This document shows, piece after piece, positions 12,929-24,205 of a DNA stretch of 64,000 nucleotides. Numbering within the stretch: the first letter of the stretch is position 1; each line of letters begins with the position of its first letter. The notes under the pieces are model-generated. The model was given only the letters and a program-made list of their open reading frames with translations, was not told the origin of the DNA and searched no databases. Position numbers and translations under genes: made by a program. This DNA comes from Escherichia coli (GTDB taxonomy: Bacteria > Pseudomonadota > Gammaproteobacteria > Enterobacterales > Enterobacteriaceae), in the NCBI RefSeq assembly GCF_003334255.1, contig NZ_QOWU01000024.1; one strand, 5' to 3'.

Positions 12929-12955
12929 TGATAATGAAATTAATTATCGTTATCG
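12929..12955. promoter_or_regulatory. Fur box in the divergent fepDGC / entS promoter region
   Basis: tgataatgaaattaattatcgttatcg: tandem GATAAT / ATTATC hexamers typical of Fur sites. Confidence 0.65.
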
Positions 12956-13027: not shown

Positions 13028-14278
13028 ATGAATAAACAATCCTGGCTGCTTAACCTCAGCCTGTTGAAAACGCACCCGGCGTTTCGCGCAGTATTCCTCG
13101 CTCGTTTCATCTCAATTGTGTCTCTGGGTTTGCTCGGCGTCGCGGTGCCGGTGCAGATCCAGATGATGACACATTCCACCTGGCAGGTGGGGCTTTCGGT
13201 GACGCTGACCGGCGGCGCGATGTTTGTTGGCCTGATGGTCGGCGGTGTGCTGGCGGATCGCTATGAGCGCAAAAAAGTGATTTTGCTGGCGCGCGGCACC
13301 TGTGGCATTGGCTTCATTGGACTGTGCCTTAATGCACTGCTGCCGGAGCCGTCATTGCTGGCAATCTATTTACTTGGTTTATGGGATGGTTTTTTCGCAT
13401 CGCTTGGCGTTACGGCGCTATTGGCGGCGACACCAGCACTGGTAGGGCGTGAAAACTTAATGCAGGCCGGGGCGATCACCATGTTGACCGTGCGTCTGGG
13501 GTCGGTGATTTCGCCCATGATTGGCGGTTTATTGCTGGCGACCGGTGGCGTAGCCTGGAACTACGGGCTGGCGGCGGCGGGCACGTTTATTACCTTGCTA
13601 CCGTTGTTAAGCCTTCCGGCGTTGCCACCGCCACCGCAGCCGCGTGAGCATCCGTTGAAATCATTACTGGCAGGATTTCGTTTTCTGCTTGCCAGCCCGC
13701 TGGTGGGCGGGATTGCGCTGCTGGGTGGTTTATTGACGATGGCGAGCGCGGTGCGGGTACTGTATCCGGCGCTGGCTGACAACTGGCAGATGTCAGCGGC
13801 ACAGATTGGTTTTCTCTACGCGGCGATCCCGCTCGGCGCGGCTATTGGTGCGTTAACCAGCGGGAAGCTGGCACATAGTGCGCGACCAGGGTTATTGATG
13901 CTGCTCTCCACGCTGGGATCGTTCCTCGCCATTGGTCTGTTTGGCCTGATGCCGATGTGGATTTTAGGCGTGGTTTGTCTGGCGCTGTTCGGCTGGTTGA
14001 GTGCGGTCAGCTCGTTGCTGCAATACACAATGCTGCAAACGCAAACCCCGGAAGCGATGTTAGGGCGGATTAACGGTTTGTGGACGGCGCAGAACGTGAC
14101 GGGCGATGCCATAGGCGCGGCGCTGCTGGGTGGTTTGGGCGCGATGATGACACCGGTTGCTTCCGCAAGCGCGAGCGGTTTTGGTTTGTTGATTATCGGC
14201 GTGTTGTTATTGCTGGTGCTGGTGGAGTTGCGACATTTTCGCCAGACGCCGCCGCAGGTGACAGCGTCCGACAGTTAA
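13028..14278 (+). CDS. entS: MFS enterobactin exporter
   Basis: 416 aa, about 12 predicted TM segments, recognised as EntS (YbdA). Confidence 0.93.
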
Positions 14279-14281
14279 TGC

Positions 14282-15238
14282 TTAAAACAGCGCCTTAAGC
14301 CTATCCAGCACTTGCATGGCGCTGTAGTAATCCAGACGGAACGTCTCGGTTCCCAGCGCATAAACCTGCTTGTTTTGTACTGCAGGCAGGTGCGCGAGCA
14401 GCGGATTAGCATAAATAGCATCGGCATCTTTCTGATCACCGGCGAACAGGAATAGTGACTCGCCATTTAACCCTGCAGCCAGATTTTCCCCACCAAGCTG
14501 AATGATGTCATGGCGTTTACCCTGACTTTGGCTGGCATTTAACCCTGCGGGTAACTTCGCCAGCGTAAAGCCGAGTTGTTCCAGCATCTGCCCTTGTGCT
14601 GATTCTGGCGTCCAGAGATTGGCACTGTGTGCAGCGGCAGTATAGACAATGGCAGTGACCGGCTGCGGCGGTAATTTGATTTGCTCTTTCGCCGCCGCCA
14701 GTTGCTTATCAAACTGCGCAATCCGCTCTGCCGCTTGTTTCTCATGCCCGGTAATTTCGCCAAGTTGCGTTAACAGCGACTGCCAGCTTTTGTCGTCGTA
14801 ATTGATGATTAATGTCGGGGCGATGGTGGAAAGCTGATCATACAGTGCCAGCGCCGAATCCCCGCCGGTTGCGCTAATTAAAATCAGATCCGGCATTTGC
14901 GCGGCAACGGCTTCGGCGCTCGGTTCGCCGATATAGAGCCGTTGCAGTTTGCGTTCTTTCGCCACCTTGCTCCACTGGCGTAAAAAGCCCTGGTCATCCG
15001 CGACGCGGTTATTCGGCGTGGTCGCGCCGCTGGCGATCACCGGAGCATCAATCGCCAGCAGTGAGCCGGTCAGGGTGACGCTGGTGGAAACAATACGCTG
15101 CGGCTGGCTTTCCAGTGTATGTGTGCCACGGCTGTCAGTAATCTGACGCGGCCAGTCAGCGGCCTGAACTGCGGCTATTCCTGAAAGCAAAAGTCCTGTT
15201 AATAGAAGGGCGTTGCGGTAGAGCGGGGCGAGTCTCAC
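14282..15238 (-). CDS. fepB: Periplasmic ferric enterobactin-binding protein
   Basis: 318 aa, GTG start, signal peptide [26 protein letters not shown]; recognised as FepB. Confidence 0.93.
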
Positions 15239-15304
15239 AAATCAGCTTCCTGTTATTAATAAGGTTAAGGGCGTAATGACAAATTCGACAAAGCGCACAA
15301 TCCG

Positions 15305-15412
15305 TCCCCTCGCCCCTTTGGGGAGAGGGTTAGGGTGAGGGGAACAGCCAGCACTGGTGCGAACATTAACCCTCACCCCAGCCCTCACCCTGGAAGGGAG
15401 AGGGGGCAGAAC
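15305..15412. repeat. GC-rich palindromic repeat units (boxC/RIP-like) within the fepB 5' leader region
   Basis: cccctcgcccctttggggagaggg ... ttagggtgagggg ... aaccctcacccc ... gggagaggggg: nested inverted repeats of CCCTC/GAGGG-type motifs; a related unit recurs at 22770-22825. Confidence 0.5.
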
Positions 15413-15444
15413 GGCGCAGGACATCACATTGCGCTTATGCGAAT

Positions 15445-15470
15445 CCATCAATAATGCTTCTCATTTTCAT
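15445..15470. promoter_or_regulatory. Fur-box-like site (fepB side)
   Basis: catcaataatgcttctcattttcatt; partial match to Fur consensus. Confidence 0.4.
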
Positions 15471-15564
15471 TGTAACCACAACCAGATGCAACCCCGAGTT
15501 GCAGATTGCGTTACCTCAAGAGTTGACATAGTGCGCGTTTGCTTTTAGGTTAGCGACCGAAAAT

Positions 15565-15585
15565 ATAAATGATAATCATTATTAA
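15565..15585. promoter_or_regulatory. Fur box upstream of entCEBAH
   Basis: aaatgataatcattattaaag: near-perfect match to GATAATGATAATCATTATC. Confidence 0.75.
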
Positions 15586-15612
15586 AGCCTTTATCATTTT
15601 GTGGAGGATGAT

Positions 15613-16788
15613 ATGGATACGTCACTGGCTGAGGAAGTACAGCAGACCATGGCAACACTTGCGCCCAATCGCTTTTTCTTTATGTCGCCGTACCGCAGTT
15701 TTACGACGTCAGGATGTTTCGCCCGCTTCGATGAACCGGCTGTGAACGGGGATTCGCCCGACAGTCCCTTCCAGCAAAAACTCGCCGCGCTGTTTGCCGA
15801 TGCCAAAGCGCAGGGCATCAAAAATCCGGTGATGGTCGGGGCGATTCCCTTCGATCCACGTCAGCCTTCGTCGCTGTATATTCCTGAATCCTGGCAGTCG
15901 TTCTCCCGTCAGGAAAAACAAGCTTCCGCACGCCGTTTCACCCGCAGCCAGTCGCTGAATGTGGTGGAACGCCAGGCAATTCCGGAGCAAACCACGTTTG
16001 AACAGATGGTTGCCCGCGCCGCCGCACTTACCGCCACGCCGCAGGTCGACAAAGTGGTGTTGTCACGGTTGATTGATATCACCACTGACGCCGCCATTGA
16101 TAGTGGCGTATTGCTGGAACGGTTGATTGCGCAAAACCCGGTTAGTTACAACTTCCATGTTCCGCTGGCTGATGGTGGCGTCCTGCTGGGGGCCAGCCCG
16201 GAACTGCTGCTACGTAAAGACGGCGAGCGTTTTAGCTCCATTCCGTTAGCCGGTTCCGCGCGTCGTCAGCCGGATGAAGTGCTCGATCGCGAAGCAGGTA
16301 ATCGTCTGCTGGCGTCAGAAAAAGATCGCCATGAACATGAACTGGTGACTCAGGCGATGAAAGAGGTACTGCGCGAACGCAGTAGTGAGTTACACGTTCC
16401 TTCTTCTCCACAGCTGATCACCACGCCGACGCTGTGGCATCTCGCAACTCCCTTTGAAGGTAAAGCGAATTCGCAAGAAAACGCACTGACTCTGGCCTGT
16501 CTGCTGCATCCGACCCCCGCGCTGAGCGGTTTCCCGCATCAGGCCGCGACCCAGGTTATTGCTGAACTGGAACCGTTCGACCGCGAACTGTTTGGCGGCA
16601 TTGTGGGTTGGTGTGACAGCGAAGGTAACGGCGAATGGGTGGTGACCATCCGCTGCGCGAAGCTGCGGGAAAATCAGGTGCGTCTGTTTGCCGGAGCGGG
16701 GATTGTGCCTGCGTCGTCACCGTTGGGTGAGTGGCGCGAAACAGGCGTCAAACTTTCTACCATGTTGAACGTTTTTGGATTGCATTAA
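15613..16788 (+). CDS. entC: Isochorismate synthase
   Basis: Translation from [23 protein letters not shown]... (391 aa) recognised as EntC. Confidence 0.95.
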
Positions 16789-16797
16789 GGAGCGAGG

Positions 16798-18408
16798 ATG
16801 AGCATTCCATTCACCCGCTGGCCGGAAGAGTTTGCCCGTCGCTATCGGGAAAAAGGCTACTGGCAGGATTTGCCGCTGACCGACATTCTGACGCGACATG
16901 CTGCGAGTGACAGCATCGCGGTTATCGACGGCGAGCGACAGTTGAGTTATCGGGAGCTGAATCAGGCGGCGGATAACCTCGCGTGTAGTTTACGCCGTCA
17001 GGGCATTAAACCTGGTGAAACCGCGCTGGTACAACTGGGTAACGTCGCTGAATTGTATATTACCTTTTTCGCGCTGCTGAAACTGGGCGTTGCGCCGGTG
17101 CTGGCGTTGTTCAGCCATCAGCGTAGTGAACTGAACGCCTATGCCAGCCAGATTGAACCCGCATTGCTGATTGCCGATCGCCAACATGCGCTGTTTAGCG
17201 GGGATGATTTCCTCAATACTTTCGTCACAGAACATTCCTCCATTCGCGTGGTGCAACTGCTCAACGACAGCGGTGAGCATAACTTGCAGGATGCGATTAA
17301 CCATCCGGCTGAGGATTTTACTGCCACGCCATCACCTGCTGATGAAGTGGCCTATTTCCAGCTTTCCGGTGGCACCACCGGCACACCGAAACTGATCCCG
17401 CGCACTCATAACGACTACTACTACAGCGTGCGTCGTAGCGTCGAGATTTGTCAGTTCACACAACAGACACGCTACCTGTGCGCGATCCCGGCGGCTCATA
17501 ACTACGCCATGAGTTCGCCAGGATCGCTGGGCGTCTTTCTTGCCGGAGGAACGGTTGTTCTGGCGGCCGATCCCAGCGCCACGCTCTGTTTCCCATTGAT
17601 TGAAAAACATCAGGTTAACGTTACCGCGCTGGTGCCACCCGCAGTCAGCCTGTGGTTGCAGGCGCTGATCGAAGGCGAAAGCCGGGCGCAGCTTGCCTCG
17701 CTGAAACTGTTACAGGTCGGCGGCGCACGTCTTTCTGCCACCCTTGCGGCGCGTATTCCCGCTGAGATTGGCTGTCAGTTGCAGCAGGTGTTTGGCATGG
17801 CGGAAGGGCTGGTGAACTACACCCGACTTGATGATAGCGCGGAGAAAATTATCCATACCCAGGGTTACCCAATGTGTCCGGATGACGAAGTATGGGTTGC
17901 CGATGCCGAAGGAAATCCACTGCCGCAAGGGGAAGTCGGACGCCTGATGACGCGCGGGCCGTACACCTTCCGCGGCTATTACAAAAGTCCACAGCACAAT
18001 GCCAGCGCCTTTGATGCCAACGGTTTTTACTGTTCCGGCGATCTGATCTCTATTGATCCAGAGGGTTACATCACCGTGCAGGGGCGCGAGAAAGATCAGA
18101 TTAACCGTGGCGGCGAGAAGATCGCTGCCGAAGAGATCGAAAACCTGCTGCTGCGCCACCCGGCGGTGATCTACGCCGCACTGGTGAGCATGGAAGATGA
18201 GCTGATGGGCGAAAAAAGCTGCGCTTATCTGGTGGTAAAAGAGCCGCTGCGCGCGGTGCAGGTGCGTCGTTTCCTGCGTGAACAGGGTATTGCCGAATTT
18301 AAATTACCGGATCGCGTGGAGTGTGTGGATTCACTTCCGCTGACGGCGGTCGGGAAAGTCGATAAAAAACAATTACGTCAGTGGCTGGCGTCACGCGCAT
18401 CAGCCTGA
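16798..18408 (+). CDS. entE: 2,3-dihydroxybenzoate-AMP ligase
   Basis: 536 aa; adenylate-forming motifs [13 protein letters not shown] and YCSGD; recognised as EntE. Confidence 0.95.
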
Positions 18409-18421
18409 AGGAGAGAACACG

Positions 18422-19278
18422 ATGGCTATTCCAAAATTACAGGCTTACGCACTGCCGGAGTCTCACGATATTCCGCAGAATAAAGTTGACTGGGCCTTTG
18501 AACCGCAACGTGCCGCGTTGTTAATCCATGATATGCAGGACTATTTTGTCAGCTTCTGGGGCGAGAACTGCCCGATGATGGAGCAGGTGATCGCGAATAT
18601 TGCTGCGCTGCGCGACTACTGCAAACAGCACAATATCCCGGTTTATTACACCGCCCAGCCGAAAGAGCAGAGCGATGAAGATCGGGCGCTGTTGAATGAT
18701 ATGTGGGGGCCGGGCCTGACCCGCTCGCCGGAACAGCAAAAGGTGGTGGATCGCCTGACGCCAGATGCCGACGACACGGTGCTGGTGAAGTGGCGCTACA
18801 GCGCGTTTCATCGTTCTCCGCTGGAGCAAATGCTGAAAGAGAGTGGACGTAACCAGCTGATTATTACCGGGGTATATGCCCACATTGGCTGTATGACCAC
18901 CGCAACCGACGCATTTATGCGCGATATTAAACCGTTTATGGTGGCGGATGCGCTGGCCGATTTCAGCCGTGACGAGCATTTGATGTCGCTGAAATATGTG
19001 GCCGGACGTTCTGGCCGGGTGGTGATGACTGAAGAATTACTGCCAGCACCTATCCCCGCCAGCAAAGCGGCGCTGCGTGAGGTGATCCTGCCGTTGCTGG
19101 ACGAGTCCGATGAACCGTTCGATGACGACAACCTGATCGACTACGGTCTGGATTCGGTGCGCATGATGGCGCTGGCGGCGCGCTGGCGCAAAGTGCATGG
19201 TGATATCGACTTTGTCATGCTGGCGAAAAACCCGACCATCGACGCCTGGTGGAAGCTACTCTCCCGCGAGGTGAAATA

Positions 19279-19279
<1 letters not shown>
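18422..19279 (+). CDS. entB: Isochorismatase / aryl carrier protein
   Basis: 285 aa; N-terminal isochorismatase fold and C-terminal carrier domain (GLDSVRMMAL); recognised as EntB. Confidence 0.95.
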
Positions 19280-20441
<1,162 letters not shown>

Positions 20442-20483
20442 ACCCGACAGAATTAGATGAGATTGCAGGAAAACTCGGTTAAC

Positions 20484-20505
20484 GGAGTGATCGAGTTAAC
20501 ATTGT
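20484..20505. promoter_or_regulatory. Candidate CRP site in the cstA promoter
   Basis: gagtgatcgagttaacattg approximates TGTGA-N6-TCACA; cstA is known to be cAMP-CRP dependent. Exact site not verified. Confidence 0.4.
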
Positions 20506-20621
20506 TAAGTTAAATATTGGTTTCAACTCCGATTTACATGGTTGCTGTGTTGTTAAATTGTACAAAGATGTTATAGAAACAAAATGTAACATCTCTATGG
20601 ACACGCACACGGATAACAACT

Positions 20622-22727
20622 ATGAACAAATCAGGGAAATACCTCGTCTGGACAGTGCTCTCTGTAATGGGAGCATTTGCTCTGGGATACATTGCTTTAA
20701 ATCGTGGGGAACAGATCAACGCGCTGTGGATTGTGGTGGCGTCGGTCTGTATCTATCTGATCGCTTACCGTTTTTATGGGCTGTATATCGCCAAAAATGT
20801 GCTGGCGGTTGACCCGACGCGTATGACGCCAGCGGTGCGCCATAACGACGGGCTGGACTATGTGCCGACGGACAAGAAAGTGCTGTTCGGTCACCATTTT
20901 GCGGCCATTGCCGGAGCAGGTCCGCTGGTGGGGCCGGTACTGGCGGCGCAAATGGGCTACCTGCCGGGGATGATCTGGCTGCTCGCTGGGGTGGTTCTCG
21001 CCGGTGCGGTGCAGGATTTCATGGTGCTGTTTGTTTCTACGCGCCGTGACGGTCGCTCGCTGGGTGAGCTGGTCAAAGAAGAGATGGGGCCAACCGCCGG
21101 GGTGATTGCGCTGGTGGCCTGCTTTATGATCATGGTCATTATCCTTGCAGTGCTGGCGATGATCGTGGTGAAAGCCCTGACTCATAGCCCGTGGGGAACA
21201 TATACCGTTGCGTTCACCATTCCGCTGGCGCTGTTTATGGGGATCTACCTGCGCTATCTGCGTCCGGGGCGTATTGGCGAAGTGTCGGTCATCGGTCTGG
21301 TATTCCTGATTTTCGCCATTATCTCTGGCGGCTGGGTGGCAGAAAGTCCGACCTGGGCACCGTACTTTGACTTTACCGGCGTGCAGTTGACCTGGATGCT
21401 GGTGGGTTACGGTTTTGTGGCGGCGGTGCTGCCGGTGTGGTTACTGCTGGCCCCGCGTGACTACCTCTCTACCTTCCTGAAAATCGGGACTATCGTCGGT
21501 CTGGCGGTAGGCATTTTGATTATGCGCCCGACGCTGACCATGCCTGCGCTGACCAAATTTGTCGATGGCACTGGCCCGGTATGGACCGGTAACCTGTTCC
21601 CGTTCCTGTTTATCACCATCGCCTGTGGCGCGGTGTCTGGCTTCCATGCGCTGATCTCTTCTGGGACCACGCCGAAGATGCTGGCGAACGAAGGGCAGGC
21701 GTGCTTTATCGGCTACGGTGGGATGTTAATGGAATCCTTCGTGGCGATTATGGCGCTGGTTTCCGCCTGTATCATCGATCCGGGCGTGTATTTTGCCATG
21801 AACAGCCCGATGGCGGTGCTGGCTCCGGCAGGGACGGCGGATGTGGTCGCTTCTGCCGCGCAGGTGGTGAGTAGCTGGGGCTTTAGCATTACACCAGATA
21901 CGCTAAACCAGATTGCCAGCGAAGTGGGTGAACAGTCGATCATTTCCCGTGCGGGCGGTGCGCCGACGCTGGCGGTGGGGATGGCCTACATTCTGCACGG
22001 CGCGCTGGGCGGCATGATGGATGTGGCGTTCTGGTATCACTTCGCCATTTTGTTTGAAGCACTGTTTATTCTGACGGCGGTGGATGCAGGTACGCGTGCT
22101 GCGCGCTTTATGTTGCAGGATCTGCTGGGCGTGGTGTCTCCTGGCCTGAAGCGGACCGATTCACTGCCTGCTAACCTGCTGGCAACAGCGCTGTGCGTAC
22201 TGGCGTGGGGCTACTTCCTCCATCAGGGCGTGGTCGATCCGCTGGGCGGCATTAACACTCTGTGGCCGCTGTTTGGTATTGCCAACCAGATGCTGGCAGG
22301 GATGGCGCTGATGCTCTGTGCCGTGGTGTTGTTCAAGATGAAACGTCAACGTTACGCCTGGGTGGCGCTGGTACCAACGGCCTGGCTGCTGATTTGTACC
22401 CTGACCGCAGGCTGGCAGAAAGCGTTTAGCCCGGATGCGAAAGTCGGCTTCCTGGCCATTGCTAATAAGTTCCAGGCAATGATCGACAGCGGCAATATTC
22501 CGTCGCAGTATACTGAGTCACAGCTGGCGCAACTGGTGTTCAACAACCGTCTGGATGCCGGGTTAACCATCTTCTTTATGGTGGTCGTGGTGGTTCTGGC
22601 ACTGTTCTCGATTAAGACGGCACTTGCGGCATTGAAAGATCCGAAGCCAACGGCGAAAGAAACGCCGTATGAACCAATGCCGGAAAATGTCGAGGAGATC
22701 GTGGCGCAGGCAAAAGGCGCACACTAA
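20622..22727 (+). CDS. cstA: Carbon starvation protein A (peptide/pyruvate transporter family)
   Basis: 701 aa polytopic membrane protein recognised as CstA. Confidence 0.95.
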   Translation: MNKSGKYLVWTVLSVMGAFALGYIALNRGEQINALWIVVASVCIYLIAYRFYGLYIAKNVLAVDPTRMTPAVRHNDGLDYVPTDKKVLFGHHFAAIAGAGPLVGPVLAAQMGYLPGMIWLLAGVVLAGAVQDFMVLFVSTRRDGRSLGELVKEEMGPTAGVIALVACFMIMVIILAVLAMIVVKALTHSPWGTYTVAFTIPLALFMGIYLRYLRPGRIGEVSVIGLVFLIFAIISGGWVAESPTWAPYFDFTGVQLTWMLVGYGFVAAVLPVWLLLAPRDYLSTFLKIGTIVGLAVGILIMRPTLTMPALTKFVDGTGPVWTGNLFPFLFITIACGAVSGFHALISSGTTPKMLANEGQACFIGYGGMLMESFVAIMALVSACIIDPGVYFAMNSPMAVLAPAGTADVVASAAQVVSSWGFSITPDTLNQIASEVGEQSIISRAGGAPTLAVGMAYILHGALGGMMDVAFWYHFAILFEALFILTAVDAGTRAARFMLQDLLGVVSPGLKRTDSLPANLLATALCVLAWGYFLHQGVVDPLGGINTLWPLFGIANQMLAGMALMLCAVVLFKMKRQRYAWVALVPTAWLLICTLTAGWQKAFSPDAKVGFLAIANKFQAMIDSGNIPSQYTESQLAQLVFNNRLDAGLTIFFMVVVVVLALFSIKTALAALKDPKPTAKETPYEPMPENVEEIVAQAKGAH

Positions 22728-22769
22728 AGTCAGAGTGAGGGGGGGATGTTGGCGAATGTTGGCTTAGTG

Positions 22770-22825
22770 CCCAGGGTTCCCTCTCACCCTAACCCTCTCC
22801 CCGGTGGGGCGAGGGGACTGACCGA
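22770..22825. repeat. GC-rich boxC/RIP-like palindromic unit
   Basis: cccagggttccctctcaccctaaccctctccccggtggggcgaggggactgacc; related to the 15305-15412 units. Confidence 0.5.
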
Positions 22826-22840
22826 GCGCGTTGATAGCAT

Positions 22841-22880
22841 TTGTAGGCCGGATAAGGCGTTCACGCCGCATCCGGCACTC
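22841..22880. repeat. REP unit
   Basis: tgtaggccggataaggcgttcacgccgcatccggcactc; same 36-mer core as the REP at 908-943. Confidence 0.7.
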
Positions 22881-22909
22881 TTTCAGCAACATGGTTAGCG
22901 GAGGCCAAG

Positions 22910-23107
22910 ATGTTTGATTCACTGGCAAAAGCCGGAAAATATTTAGGTCAGGCGGCGAAGCTGATGATTGGTATGCCTGATTACGACAACTATGTCGAAC
23001 ATATGCGGGTTAACCATCCCGATCAAACGCCGATGACCTACGAAGAGTTTTTCCGTGAGCGGCAGGACGCGCGCTACGGTGGAAAAGGCGGCGCGCGCTG
23101 CTGCTAA
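22910..23107 (+). CDS. ybdD: Small DUF466-family protein, CstA partner
   Basis: 65 aa [58 protein letters not shown]...; recognised as YbdD. Confidence 0.88.
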
Positions 23108-23116
23108 ATTTGTACG

Positions 23117-24205
23117 TCAGGCTTTAAACGATTCCACTTTTTTGAACGCTGCACGCAACGTATCTGGTGTCAGCGTGACTGGCAGGTAATGAATGGACTC
23201 CACCGGACGCAGGGTGTGGGCAATCACTTTGTCGATCTCCGCCTGATTATTGATATCCACTTCCAGCTCCGCCAGTGTAGTCGGCAGATGAAAACGCTGA
23301 TACGCTCCAGTTAATTGCGCCAGCACATCATCCTGACCCAGCAAGGCGCTTTGCACCAGAATTCCGTAGGCGACTTTGGTGCCGTGGAGAAACTTCTCGG
23401 TTTGCGGCAGCACGGTCAGACCGTTATGCACGGCATGAGCTGCCGCCACACGCGTAAAACGATCGCCCAGACCACCAACCATCCCACCACCAGCAATAAT
23501 AGCATCCACCACATCGCAAAATGATTGCGTTAACTGTTGATTTTGCTGATCGCTCAGCGCCTGTTCGCTACTGTTTAACAAGACGTCGCGAATGGCTTGC
23601 GCATTATTGATCCCCAGTCGCACGGTTAGCGGCAACGTTTCTGGTTGCGGAGCCAGCACCACCGCTTCATACCATTTCGCCAGCGTGTCACCGATCCCCG
23701 CCAGCAGATATTGTTGCGGTGCATTGAGGATAATCTCCGGTTCCACCAGCACCATAAAATTGGCGTCGTCGAAAATCTCATAATGCAGCGCCTGTCCGGC
23801 ATCATTATACCAGACGGAGAGCGGTGTCCAGGCGGCGCAGGTGGCGGCGATCGTCGGAACGGCAACAAACGGCAGACCGAGACGGCGGGCGAGGGCTTTC
23901 GCGGTGTCGAGCAGTGCACCGCCACCGACGCCAATCACCACGCTGCGGTCGTCACCGGACTCAGCCGCCAGTTGTTGTACATCGCTTTCGCTGCAATGAC
24001 CGCGAAACAAAATATGCTTTGCCCCTGGCAGTCCAAACGCTGGCGGAAGTTTGGTTTGCGCCGCAGCAATGGCGCGTTTGCCGTAGATCCACACCGCGCG
24101 AGAAAGTTGTTCATCAGTGAAAAAATCGTGCAGGTGATTGAAACTTCCTGGATGTGAAAAGTAGTTAGCCGGGCCGACGACCACGCGGATAGGATTGTGA
24201 GGCAT
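23117..24205 (-). CDS. ybdH: Iron-containing (glycerol-dehydrogenase-like) alcohol dehydrogenase family protein
   Basis: 362 aa; GGGALLDTAK-type NAD-binding motif of the group III ADH family; recognised as YbdH. Confidence 0.88.
   Translation of the reverse strand: MPHNPIRVVVGPANYFSHPGSFNHLHDFFTDEQLSRAVWIYGKRAIAAAQTKLPPAFGLPGAKHILFRGHCSESDVQQLAAESGDDRSVVIGVGGGALLDTAKALARRLGLPFVAVPTIAATCAAWTPLSVWYNDAGQALHYEIFDDANFMVLVEPEIILNAPQQYLLAGIGDTLAKWYEAVVLAPQPETLPLTVRLGINNAQAIRDVLLNSSEQALSDQQNQQLTQSFCDVVDAIIAGGGMVGGLGDRFTRVAAAHAVHNGLTVLPQTEKFLHGTKVAYGILVQSALLGQDDVLAQLTGAYQRFHLPTTLAELEVDINNQAEIDKVIAHTLRPVESIHYLPVTLTPDTLRAAFKKVESFKA

Follow-up and report, generated by a model that had tools for sequence, protein, structure and literature searches.

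The spacer between fepB and entC (374 bp, 15239-15612) raises the question of why it is so long in this E. coli strain, and whether the palindromic repeat lying in it serves fepB. All positions are given in the window, i.e., the whole 64,000-nt stretch of DNA that was analyzed. Over 801 compared bases, window 15028-15828 is identical to 624300-625100 of E. coli K-12 MG1655 (NC_000913.3), and subtraction of 609,272 from an NC_000913.3 position gives the window position. The elements named in a preliminary description of this region were all recovered at or near the places it assigned to them. Its judgment that the spacer is unusually long was borne out by the lengths of 187-189 bp found in about 60 of 80 other Enterobacteriaceae species, including E. 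albertii, Citrobacter, Enterobacter, Klebsiella and Leclercia.

Promoters, Fur operators and translational signals

The features of the locus are collected in Table 1. BoxC identity of the repeat, its borders, its polymorphism and the ancestral state were established here, and the fepB transcription start (+1), the Fur footprints and the RyhB site were taken from the literature. In supplementary Table S1 of Wang 2015, the fepB construct with the "entire 5′ UTR" is entered as spanning -217 to +24, and the -217 boundary places the fepB +1 at window 15455. This start fits a putative promoter composed of TTGCAT (15486-15491), a 17-nt spacer and GAAAAT (15463-15468). The exact hexamers assigned to entC are likewise probable ones, read from the sequence. 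Both real promoters fell below the thresholds of the consensus scan for promoters and terminators and were hence identified by eye and from the literature; the promoters that the scan did call were only AT-rich pseudo-promoters derived from the Fur boxes and were discarded.

According to the consensus scan, each of the two Fur sites departs from the 19-mer consensus in 4 bases. Both are enclosed by the footprints of Brickman 1990, as tabulated in PMC2189734 and converted to window positions. The information scores in PMC2189734 are 23.1 bits (4 sites) for entC and 16.7 bits (2 sites) for fepB, in agreement with the earlier reading of a strong Fur box by entC and a weaker one toward fepB. Fur box 1 overlaps the -10/-35 elements of fepB, whereas the +1, -10 and -35 of entC all lie upstream of Fur box 2 (PMC5020551). 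Each of the two promoters is overlapped or adjoined by a Fur box, as in a Fur-regulated divergent promoter. The best Fur consensus matches of the window, two overlapping ones with 3-4 mismatches at 12930-12954, can presumably be assigned to the divergent promoter of fepD and entS; a fepD-entS Fur footprint is also listed in the table of PMC2189734.

The translational signals of fepB are borne by a segment of about 31 nt, AUUAACUUCAUUAAUAACAGGAAGCUGAUUU-GUG. Its untranslated part was found in short alleles, in long alleles and in other genera, and is referred to below as ancestral. In 2007, Hook-Barnard reportedly described a translational enhancer of AU-rich sequence directly before the fepB Shine-Dalgarno (SD) sequence. 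The small RNA RyhB pairs around the same SD (Wang 2015, PMC4666370). Enhancer, SD, RyhB site and GUG all fall within the ancestral 31 nt, outside the insert described in the next section.

Table 1. Features of the fepB–entC region and the related unit after cstA (window positions)
Feature	Position	Strand	Description and source
fepB coding sequence	14282..15238	minus	GTG start at 15236-15238; ORF list and RefSeq annotation of the identical MG1655 stretch
Ancestral piece of fepB 5′ UTR	15239..15268	minus	AU-rich stretch, Shine-Dalgarno AGGAAG, 7-nt spacer
BoxC inverted dimer with tails, 186-nt insertion	15269..15454		Best-split comparison with two empty-site alleles; spacer lengths
Unit 1 tail	15274..15306	plus	TAATGACAAATTCG...GCGCACAATCCGT; imperfect terminal inverted repeat with 15430-15453
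BoxC/TMECO unit 1, type A	15307..15342	plus	CCCTCGCCCC-TTTG-GGGAGAGGG-TTA-GGGTGAGGGG; TMECO no. 7 of MG1655
Central spacer, loop of the large palindrome	15343..15368		Sequence and predicted folds
BoxC/TMECO unit 2, type B	15369..15404	minus	CCCTCTCCC-TTCCA-GGGTGAGGG-CTG-GGGTGAGGGT; TMECO no. 8 of MG1655
Unit 2 tail, right end of the insertion	15405..15454	minus
fepB Fur operator	15444..15474 (footprint); 15450-15468 (Fur box 1)		PMC2189734 Table 3, converted; consensus scan; box sequence in PMC5020551
fepB transcription start (+1)	15455	minus	Wang 2015 supplementary Table S1; leader of 217 nt
Probable entC promoter	15523..15551	plus	TTGACA, 17-nt spacer, TAGGTT; read from sequence; kept in other genera
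entC Fur operator	15559..15607 (footprint); 15565-15583 (Fur box 2 core)		PMC2189734 Table 3; consensus scan
entC coding sequence	15613..16788	plus	ORF list and RefSeq annotation of the identical MG1655 stretch
Single type A BoxC downstream of cstA	22781..22815	minus	Third block degenerate, GGGTGAGAG; tail runs toward 22845

An inverted BoxC pair inserted behind the fepB transcription start

The repeat finder returned inverted arms of 41 nt at 15301-15341 and 15370-15410 (76% complementary), with shorter arms of 9-14 nt (91-100% complementary) nested in them and outer arms of 24 nt at 15274-15297 and 15430-15453 (71% complementary). These are the nested CCCTC/GAGGG-type inverted repeats, about 110 bp at 15305-15412, of the preliminary description. 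The motif GGGTGAGGG occurs 4 times in the window versus 0.29 expected. With up to 3 mismatches allowed, the 22-mer GGGGAGAGGGTTAGGGTGAGGG occurs twice versus 0 in 100 shuffles, the copy near cstA having one mismatch.

The repeat belongs to a family first named BoxC; its later names are PIT (potential intrastrand triplex) and, after that, TMECO (Holder et al. 2015, PMC4666352). The TMECO consensus of that paper, CCCTCNCCC-N3-6-GGGNGAGGG-N3-GGGNGAGGG, was used as a regular expression and matched exactly at 15307-15341 (plus) and 15370-15404 (minus). In Table 1 of PMC4666352, TMECO no. 7 is placed at 624579-624614 (type A) and no. 8 at 624676-624641 (type B); conversion of these coordinates is sound because window 15028-15828 is identical to NC_000913.3. 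At each of the five paired sites of MG1655, one type A unit is combined with one type B unit, the two being inverted relative to each other (PMC4666352). Here, the loop is TTA in unit 1 and CTG in unit 2, and the two units lie on opposite strands in an intergenic region, which is the configuration of a BoxC pair. The pair is therefore like published BoxC/PIT/TMECO copies in consensus, in being listed, in intergenic location, in its inverted A and B composition and in the strain variability of its locus. The published description is extended here by the finding that pair and tails together make up one delimited insertion of 186 nt, for which an empty site was defined.

The repeated unit exceeds the 34-37 nt motif: a stretch of about 140 nt (15276-15417) could be aligned, at 83-85%, to the pairs located between ygfF and gcvP and between alx and sstT. 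An upstream tail of about 35 nt ending in ATGACAA is common to type A units (gcvP, sstT and cstA loci), and the BoxC units here carry tails, each of roughly 35-50 nt. Earlier work on BoxC and PIT includes that of Bergler (1992), Bachellier (1996), and Hoyne and Maher (2000, 2002). An Rfam scan of 14000-24000 returned no family at threshold; sub-threshold microRNA-like matches on the palindrome, with E-values up to 1, were set aside as chance or generic hairpin matches.

Owing to a TAA on both flanks, the borders of the insertion are ambiguous by 3 nt (15266-15451 to 15269-15454). The first inserted base is +2 to +5 of the fepB transcript, 1-4 nt past the transcription start. With +1 at 15455 (Wang 2015), the whole repeat lies inside the 217-nt 5′ UTR, as the preliminary description had it, and makes up 186 of the 217 nt (86%) of the K-12 leader. 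In short alleles, with +1 assumed as in K-12, the leader would be about 31 nt.

The frequency of the insertion was surveyed in 5,426 complete E. coli genomes with a 574-bp query that extends across the spacer; coverage of this wide query reached 80% or more in 2,755 of them. A tighter, insert-centered query found a near-full insert in 2,723 of the 5,426. Some 32 genomes reach at least 80% of the wide query and less than 80% of the insert-centered one, and are candidates for further partly deleted alleles. All 14 genomes sampled from those below 80% coverage of the wide query span 388 bp in place of 574, with a fepB–entC gap of 188 bp (the empty site). About 49% of E. coli genomes lack the insertion. 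Some O157:H7 genomes also appear to be without the insert altogether, their best match lying elsewhere.

To polarize this variation, fepB loci from 80 other Enterobacteriaceae species were compared. The TMECO motif was found in none of the 80 fepB–entC spacers; the insertion is missing from 79 of these species, and E. whittamii carries a collapsed remnant. The distance from Fur box 1 to the fepB start codon is 26-30 nt in 68 of the 74 motif-bearing species versus 216 nt here, and the two Fur motifs are 114 nt apart in 51 species, exactly the spacing in K-12. Taken together, the short spacers and the Fur box positions across relatives indicate that the short form is ancestral. Given an ancestral empty site, the main polymorphism at fepB–entC is an insertion and not a loss. 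The promoters, both Fur operators, their spacing and the AU-rich/SD/GUG segment were left undisturbed by it. We consider the identity of the repeat as BoxC and its history as an insertion practically certain.

The E. whittamii spacer is 288 bp long and has the insertion borders and tails of K-12, with the center collapsed to TCCCCTCGCCCC-AACCTTC-GAGGGGCG, a simple hairpin. Counted by eye, about 10% of the tail positions differ between E. whittamii and K-12, much as in the flanking spacer. Since the borders are common to both at this divergence, the insertion must be old, with a later internal deletion in E. whittamii. In E. coli RM6927, BoxC unit 1 has lost 6 bp (GGTTAG, window 15329-15334), comprising its second loop and a portion of one block. 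The RM6927 deletion and the E. whittamii collapse are signs of decay rather than of maintenance.

We propose that an inverted BoxC pair, type A and type B with their tails, entered an ancestral 188-bp region as one 186-nt insertion. Landing 1-4 nt past the fepB +1, it would have extended the 5′ UTR of K-12, and of about half of E. coli, from about 31 to 217 nt. Once transcribed, the insert would pair with itself into a long imperfect hairpin, predicted to stay clear of the ribosome-binding region. It would have no role for fepB and would be a tolerated passenger from a dispersed, unstable repeat family. As a whole, this passenger account seems likely to us. Its most exposed part is neutrality: from the distribution of alleles and the predicted folds we infer, with some reservation, that the insert has no meaningful effect on fepB expression, and regard this as the somewhat favored outcome.

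Predicted structure of the fepB leader and its bearing on expression

The leader was folded as 233 nt (15456 to 15224) and compared with 200 shuffles. Its minimum free energy was -96.2 kcal/mol versus -73.3 ± 4.8 kcal/mol for shuffled sequences (z = -4.76), and 0 of 200 shuffles were as stable. The predicted structure is a single long imperfect hairpin over leader nucleotides 6-180 in which the insert is paired with itself. This fold agrees with the very stable RNA structure anticipated in the preliminary description, and the insert probably folds in vivo as well. For accessibility, long and short transcripts were folded with 60 nt of coding sequence on each. The predicted probability that the SD is unpaired was 0.33 in the long allele and 0.35 in the short one, and the mean over the ribosome-binding window (-20 to +15) was 0.48 and 0.50, respectively. 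The consensus scan found no terminator-like site in 15150-15700.

A stable hairpin that lies wholly within the 217-nt leader, begins about 5 nt from the 5′ end and belongs to an old and common allele could be taken for a cis-acting RNA element. It would tune fepB post-transcriptionally through protection of the 5′ end from decay, as an RNase III substrate or by slower ribosome loading. However, about 49% of E. coli and 79 of the 80 other species regulate fepB without the insert, internal deletions are eroding it where it is present, and BoxC also occurs in unrelated contexts, e.g., downstream of cstA and at hrpB-mrcB. Co-conservation with the gene across species, by which conserved cis-regulatory 5′ UTR RNAs are recognized, is lacking. 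Neither sequestration of the ribosome-binding site nor a terminator is predicted, the hairpin appearing self-contained, and the five unpaired 5′ nucleotides may be more than ompA-type protection tolerates. In the summary of earlier PIT studies given in PMC4666352, promoter activity, terminator activity and an effect on RNA polymerase are reported as not found. Our literature search for RNase III acting on fepB returned only the entS-fepB convergent overlap and indirect CsrA effects. A cis-acting role of the BoxC hairpin thus appears unlikely, although it may have a modest influence on the fate of the mRNA.

The proposal that the repeat is a regulatory feature of fepB was accordingly not sustained: it is a copy of a dispersed family, gone in about half of E. 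coli and 79 of 80 species, and access to the SD and start codon is predicted to be unchanged. The comparison with Enterobacteriaceae lacking the insertion, suggested in the same description, bore out the generality of the short 187-189 bp form but not the regulatory interpretation. We prefer the passenger account because half of E. coli and 79 of the 80 other species do without the insert and because decaying alleles exist. Two points weigh against it: a hairpin of about 175 nt only 5 nt from the 5′ end could alter mRNA half-life or be cut by RNase III, and the allele, although old, persists unpurged at about 50% frequency.

The leader also contains an open reading frame of 69 codons (15451..15242, minus) that spans the insert and might be coupled to fepB initiation. 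Its UGA stop lies 3 nt ahead of the fepB GUG, it has a TTG start and an in-frame AUG at 15448, and the 6-bp deletion of RM6927 preserves the frame. Against a coding function, the frame is not preceded by a Shine-Dalgarno sequence, its start is at most 8 nt from the 5′ end, and its product is of low complexity. The opposite strand has an open frame of 63 codons, which makes the present one unremarkable. In E. whittamii, the frame is disrupted by the 86-nt collapse, and wherever the insert is missing there is no such frame. A coupled upstream frame is hardly credible, and we attribute it to chance.

The Fur boxes, footprints, +1 and RyhB site known from work on the 217-nt fepB leader (Elkins & Earhart 1989; Brickman et al. 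1990; Hook-Barnard et al. 2007; Wang et al. 2015) coincide with features of the window. In their treatment of the leader, these papers appear to take the K-12 form as the fepB leader, whereas in our comparison it is mostly a lineage-specific insertion. The K-12 leader is atypical in that about 49% of complete E. coli genomes have a leader of about 31 nt. Caution is due with post-transcriptional conclusions drawn on K-12 fepB, since it is only for the ancestral 31 nt that they hold directly.

Individually, all the components had been described before, namely the long leader with its BoxC pair, the two Fur sites and the site of RyhB pairing. Added here are the exact borders of the insertion, its place right after the +1, the ancestral 188-bp architecture, the approximately 50:50 polymorphism in E. 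coli and the collapsed allele of E. whittamii. Since variation of TMECO loci among strains had been reported in a general way by Holder et al. (PMC4666352), even these additions are an elaboration. The two alleles form a natural pair with an unambiguous empty site, usable for questions that date from the 1990s, namely the effects of BoxC on transcripts and its mode of insertion.

Possible instability and mobility, and related repeats

The repeat might also matter at the level of DNA. Under this reading, an intrastrand triplex would arise from the G-rich strand, or a cruciform from the palindrome, the locus would be prone to recombination or deletion and possibly impede polymerase, and its significance would lie in genome instability. 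An intrastrand purine-motif triplex was reported in vitro for a consensus oligonucleotide by CD and NMR, and rearrangement was reported to be more frequent around TMECO than around control sites (PMC4666352). The fepB–entC locus has presence/absence, 6-bp deletion and collapsed-palindrome alleles, other BoxC loci vary too, and the single-stranded DNA fold is predicted at -40 kcal/mol (z = -4.3). However, in vivo DMS footprinting in PMC4666352 gave no triplex protection, the ancestral empty site points to insertion rather than loss, and the genes and promoters on either side are undamaged and conserved. We consider a primarily DNA-level significance quite unlikely; it is compatible with, and not opposed to, the passenger account.

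A more far-reaching version holds that the 186-nt dimer is a discrete mobile unit with a TAA target duplication at +2. The long and short alleles would then differ functionally through RNase III or 5′-end-dependent decay, tuning FepB dosage and ferric-enterobactin uptake by lineage. In size and ends the insert resembles a MITE: it is 186 nt long, its terminal inverted repeats (15274-15297 and 15430-15453) are 71% complementary, and it is an imperfect palindrome overall. The empty site is clean, with TAA on both flanks, and these 3 nt could also be microhomology. Similarity to other paired loci extends to two loci and to about 140 nt only, at 83-85%. No clean empty site was found at alx-sstT, ygfF-gcvP or cstA-ybdD, where collapsed palindromes, partial deletions or replaced sequence were seen instead. 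We know of no transposase, proven target-site duplication or RNase III processing for BoxC. This combined proposal is very doubtful, and the tolerated passenger remains our preferred reading.

Other BoxC pairs proved variable as well. In another strain, the alx-sstT pair has collapsed between direct CCCTCTCCC blocks, as in E. whittamii, a pattern in line with the "palindrome effect" that Holder et al. described (PMC4666352). The ygfF-gcvP and alx-sstT pairs are polymorphic through collapse, replacement by about 220 nt of unrelated sequence, or loss of ygfF beside gcvP. A query with the BoxC pair gave 1 to 13 matching places per E. coli genome. A perfect 38-nt match on "plasmid" p94_0962-1 (NZ_CP074792.1, 1627-1664, flgF–flgG) was discounted as evidence of plasmid mobility, the genes of this 155-kb replicon being chromosome-like.

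The related unit noted earlier after cstA (22770-22825) is a degenerate type A BoxC. It departs from the TMECO expression at one base, in the third block, which accounts for its absence from the 23 TMECOs of PMC4666352. In the cstA-ybdD spacer (22728-22910), this BoxC adjoins a REP element at 22846-22887. A naRNA4 match on the REP element scored 38.2 bits versus a gathering score of 59.5 and was dismissed as sub-threshold and generic or due to chance. In other E. coli strains, the hairpin part of the BoxC at this spacer is deleted, and the REP element is present or absent.

REP/BIME elements are, like BoxC, a dispersed GC-rich palindromic extragenic family of E. coli. In contrast to BoxC, they have another consensus, and RAYT transposases and effects on mRNA 3′-end stability are known for them but not for BoxC. 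ERIC/IRU and the Correia elements of Neisseria share with the BoxC insert a length below 200 bp, an imperfectly palindromic sequence, AT-rich sites in UTRs and long RNA hairpins, but have no sequence similarity to it.

The fepB–entC spacer took independent insertions in several other species. In Klebsiella grimontii, about 122 nt are inserted between the two promoters, and in Salmonella enterica subsp. arizonae, about 125 nt lie in the entC leader past Fur box 2. We take both to be ERIC-like, given an 83% match to the ERIC core. Further gains are +45 nt in Kluyvera (6 loci), +60 in Pseudocitrobacter (3 loci) and +156 in the entC leader of Intestinirhabdus alba. In Citrobacter amalonaticus, the fepB leader is longer by about 70 nt, with the start codon extrapolated.
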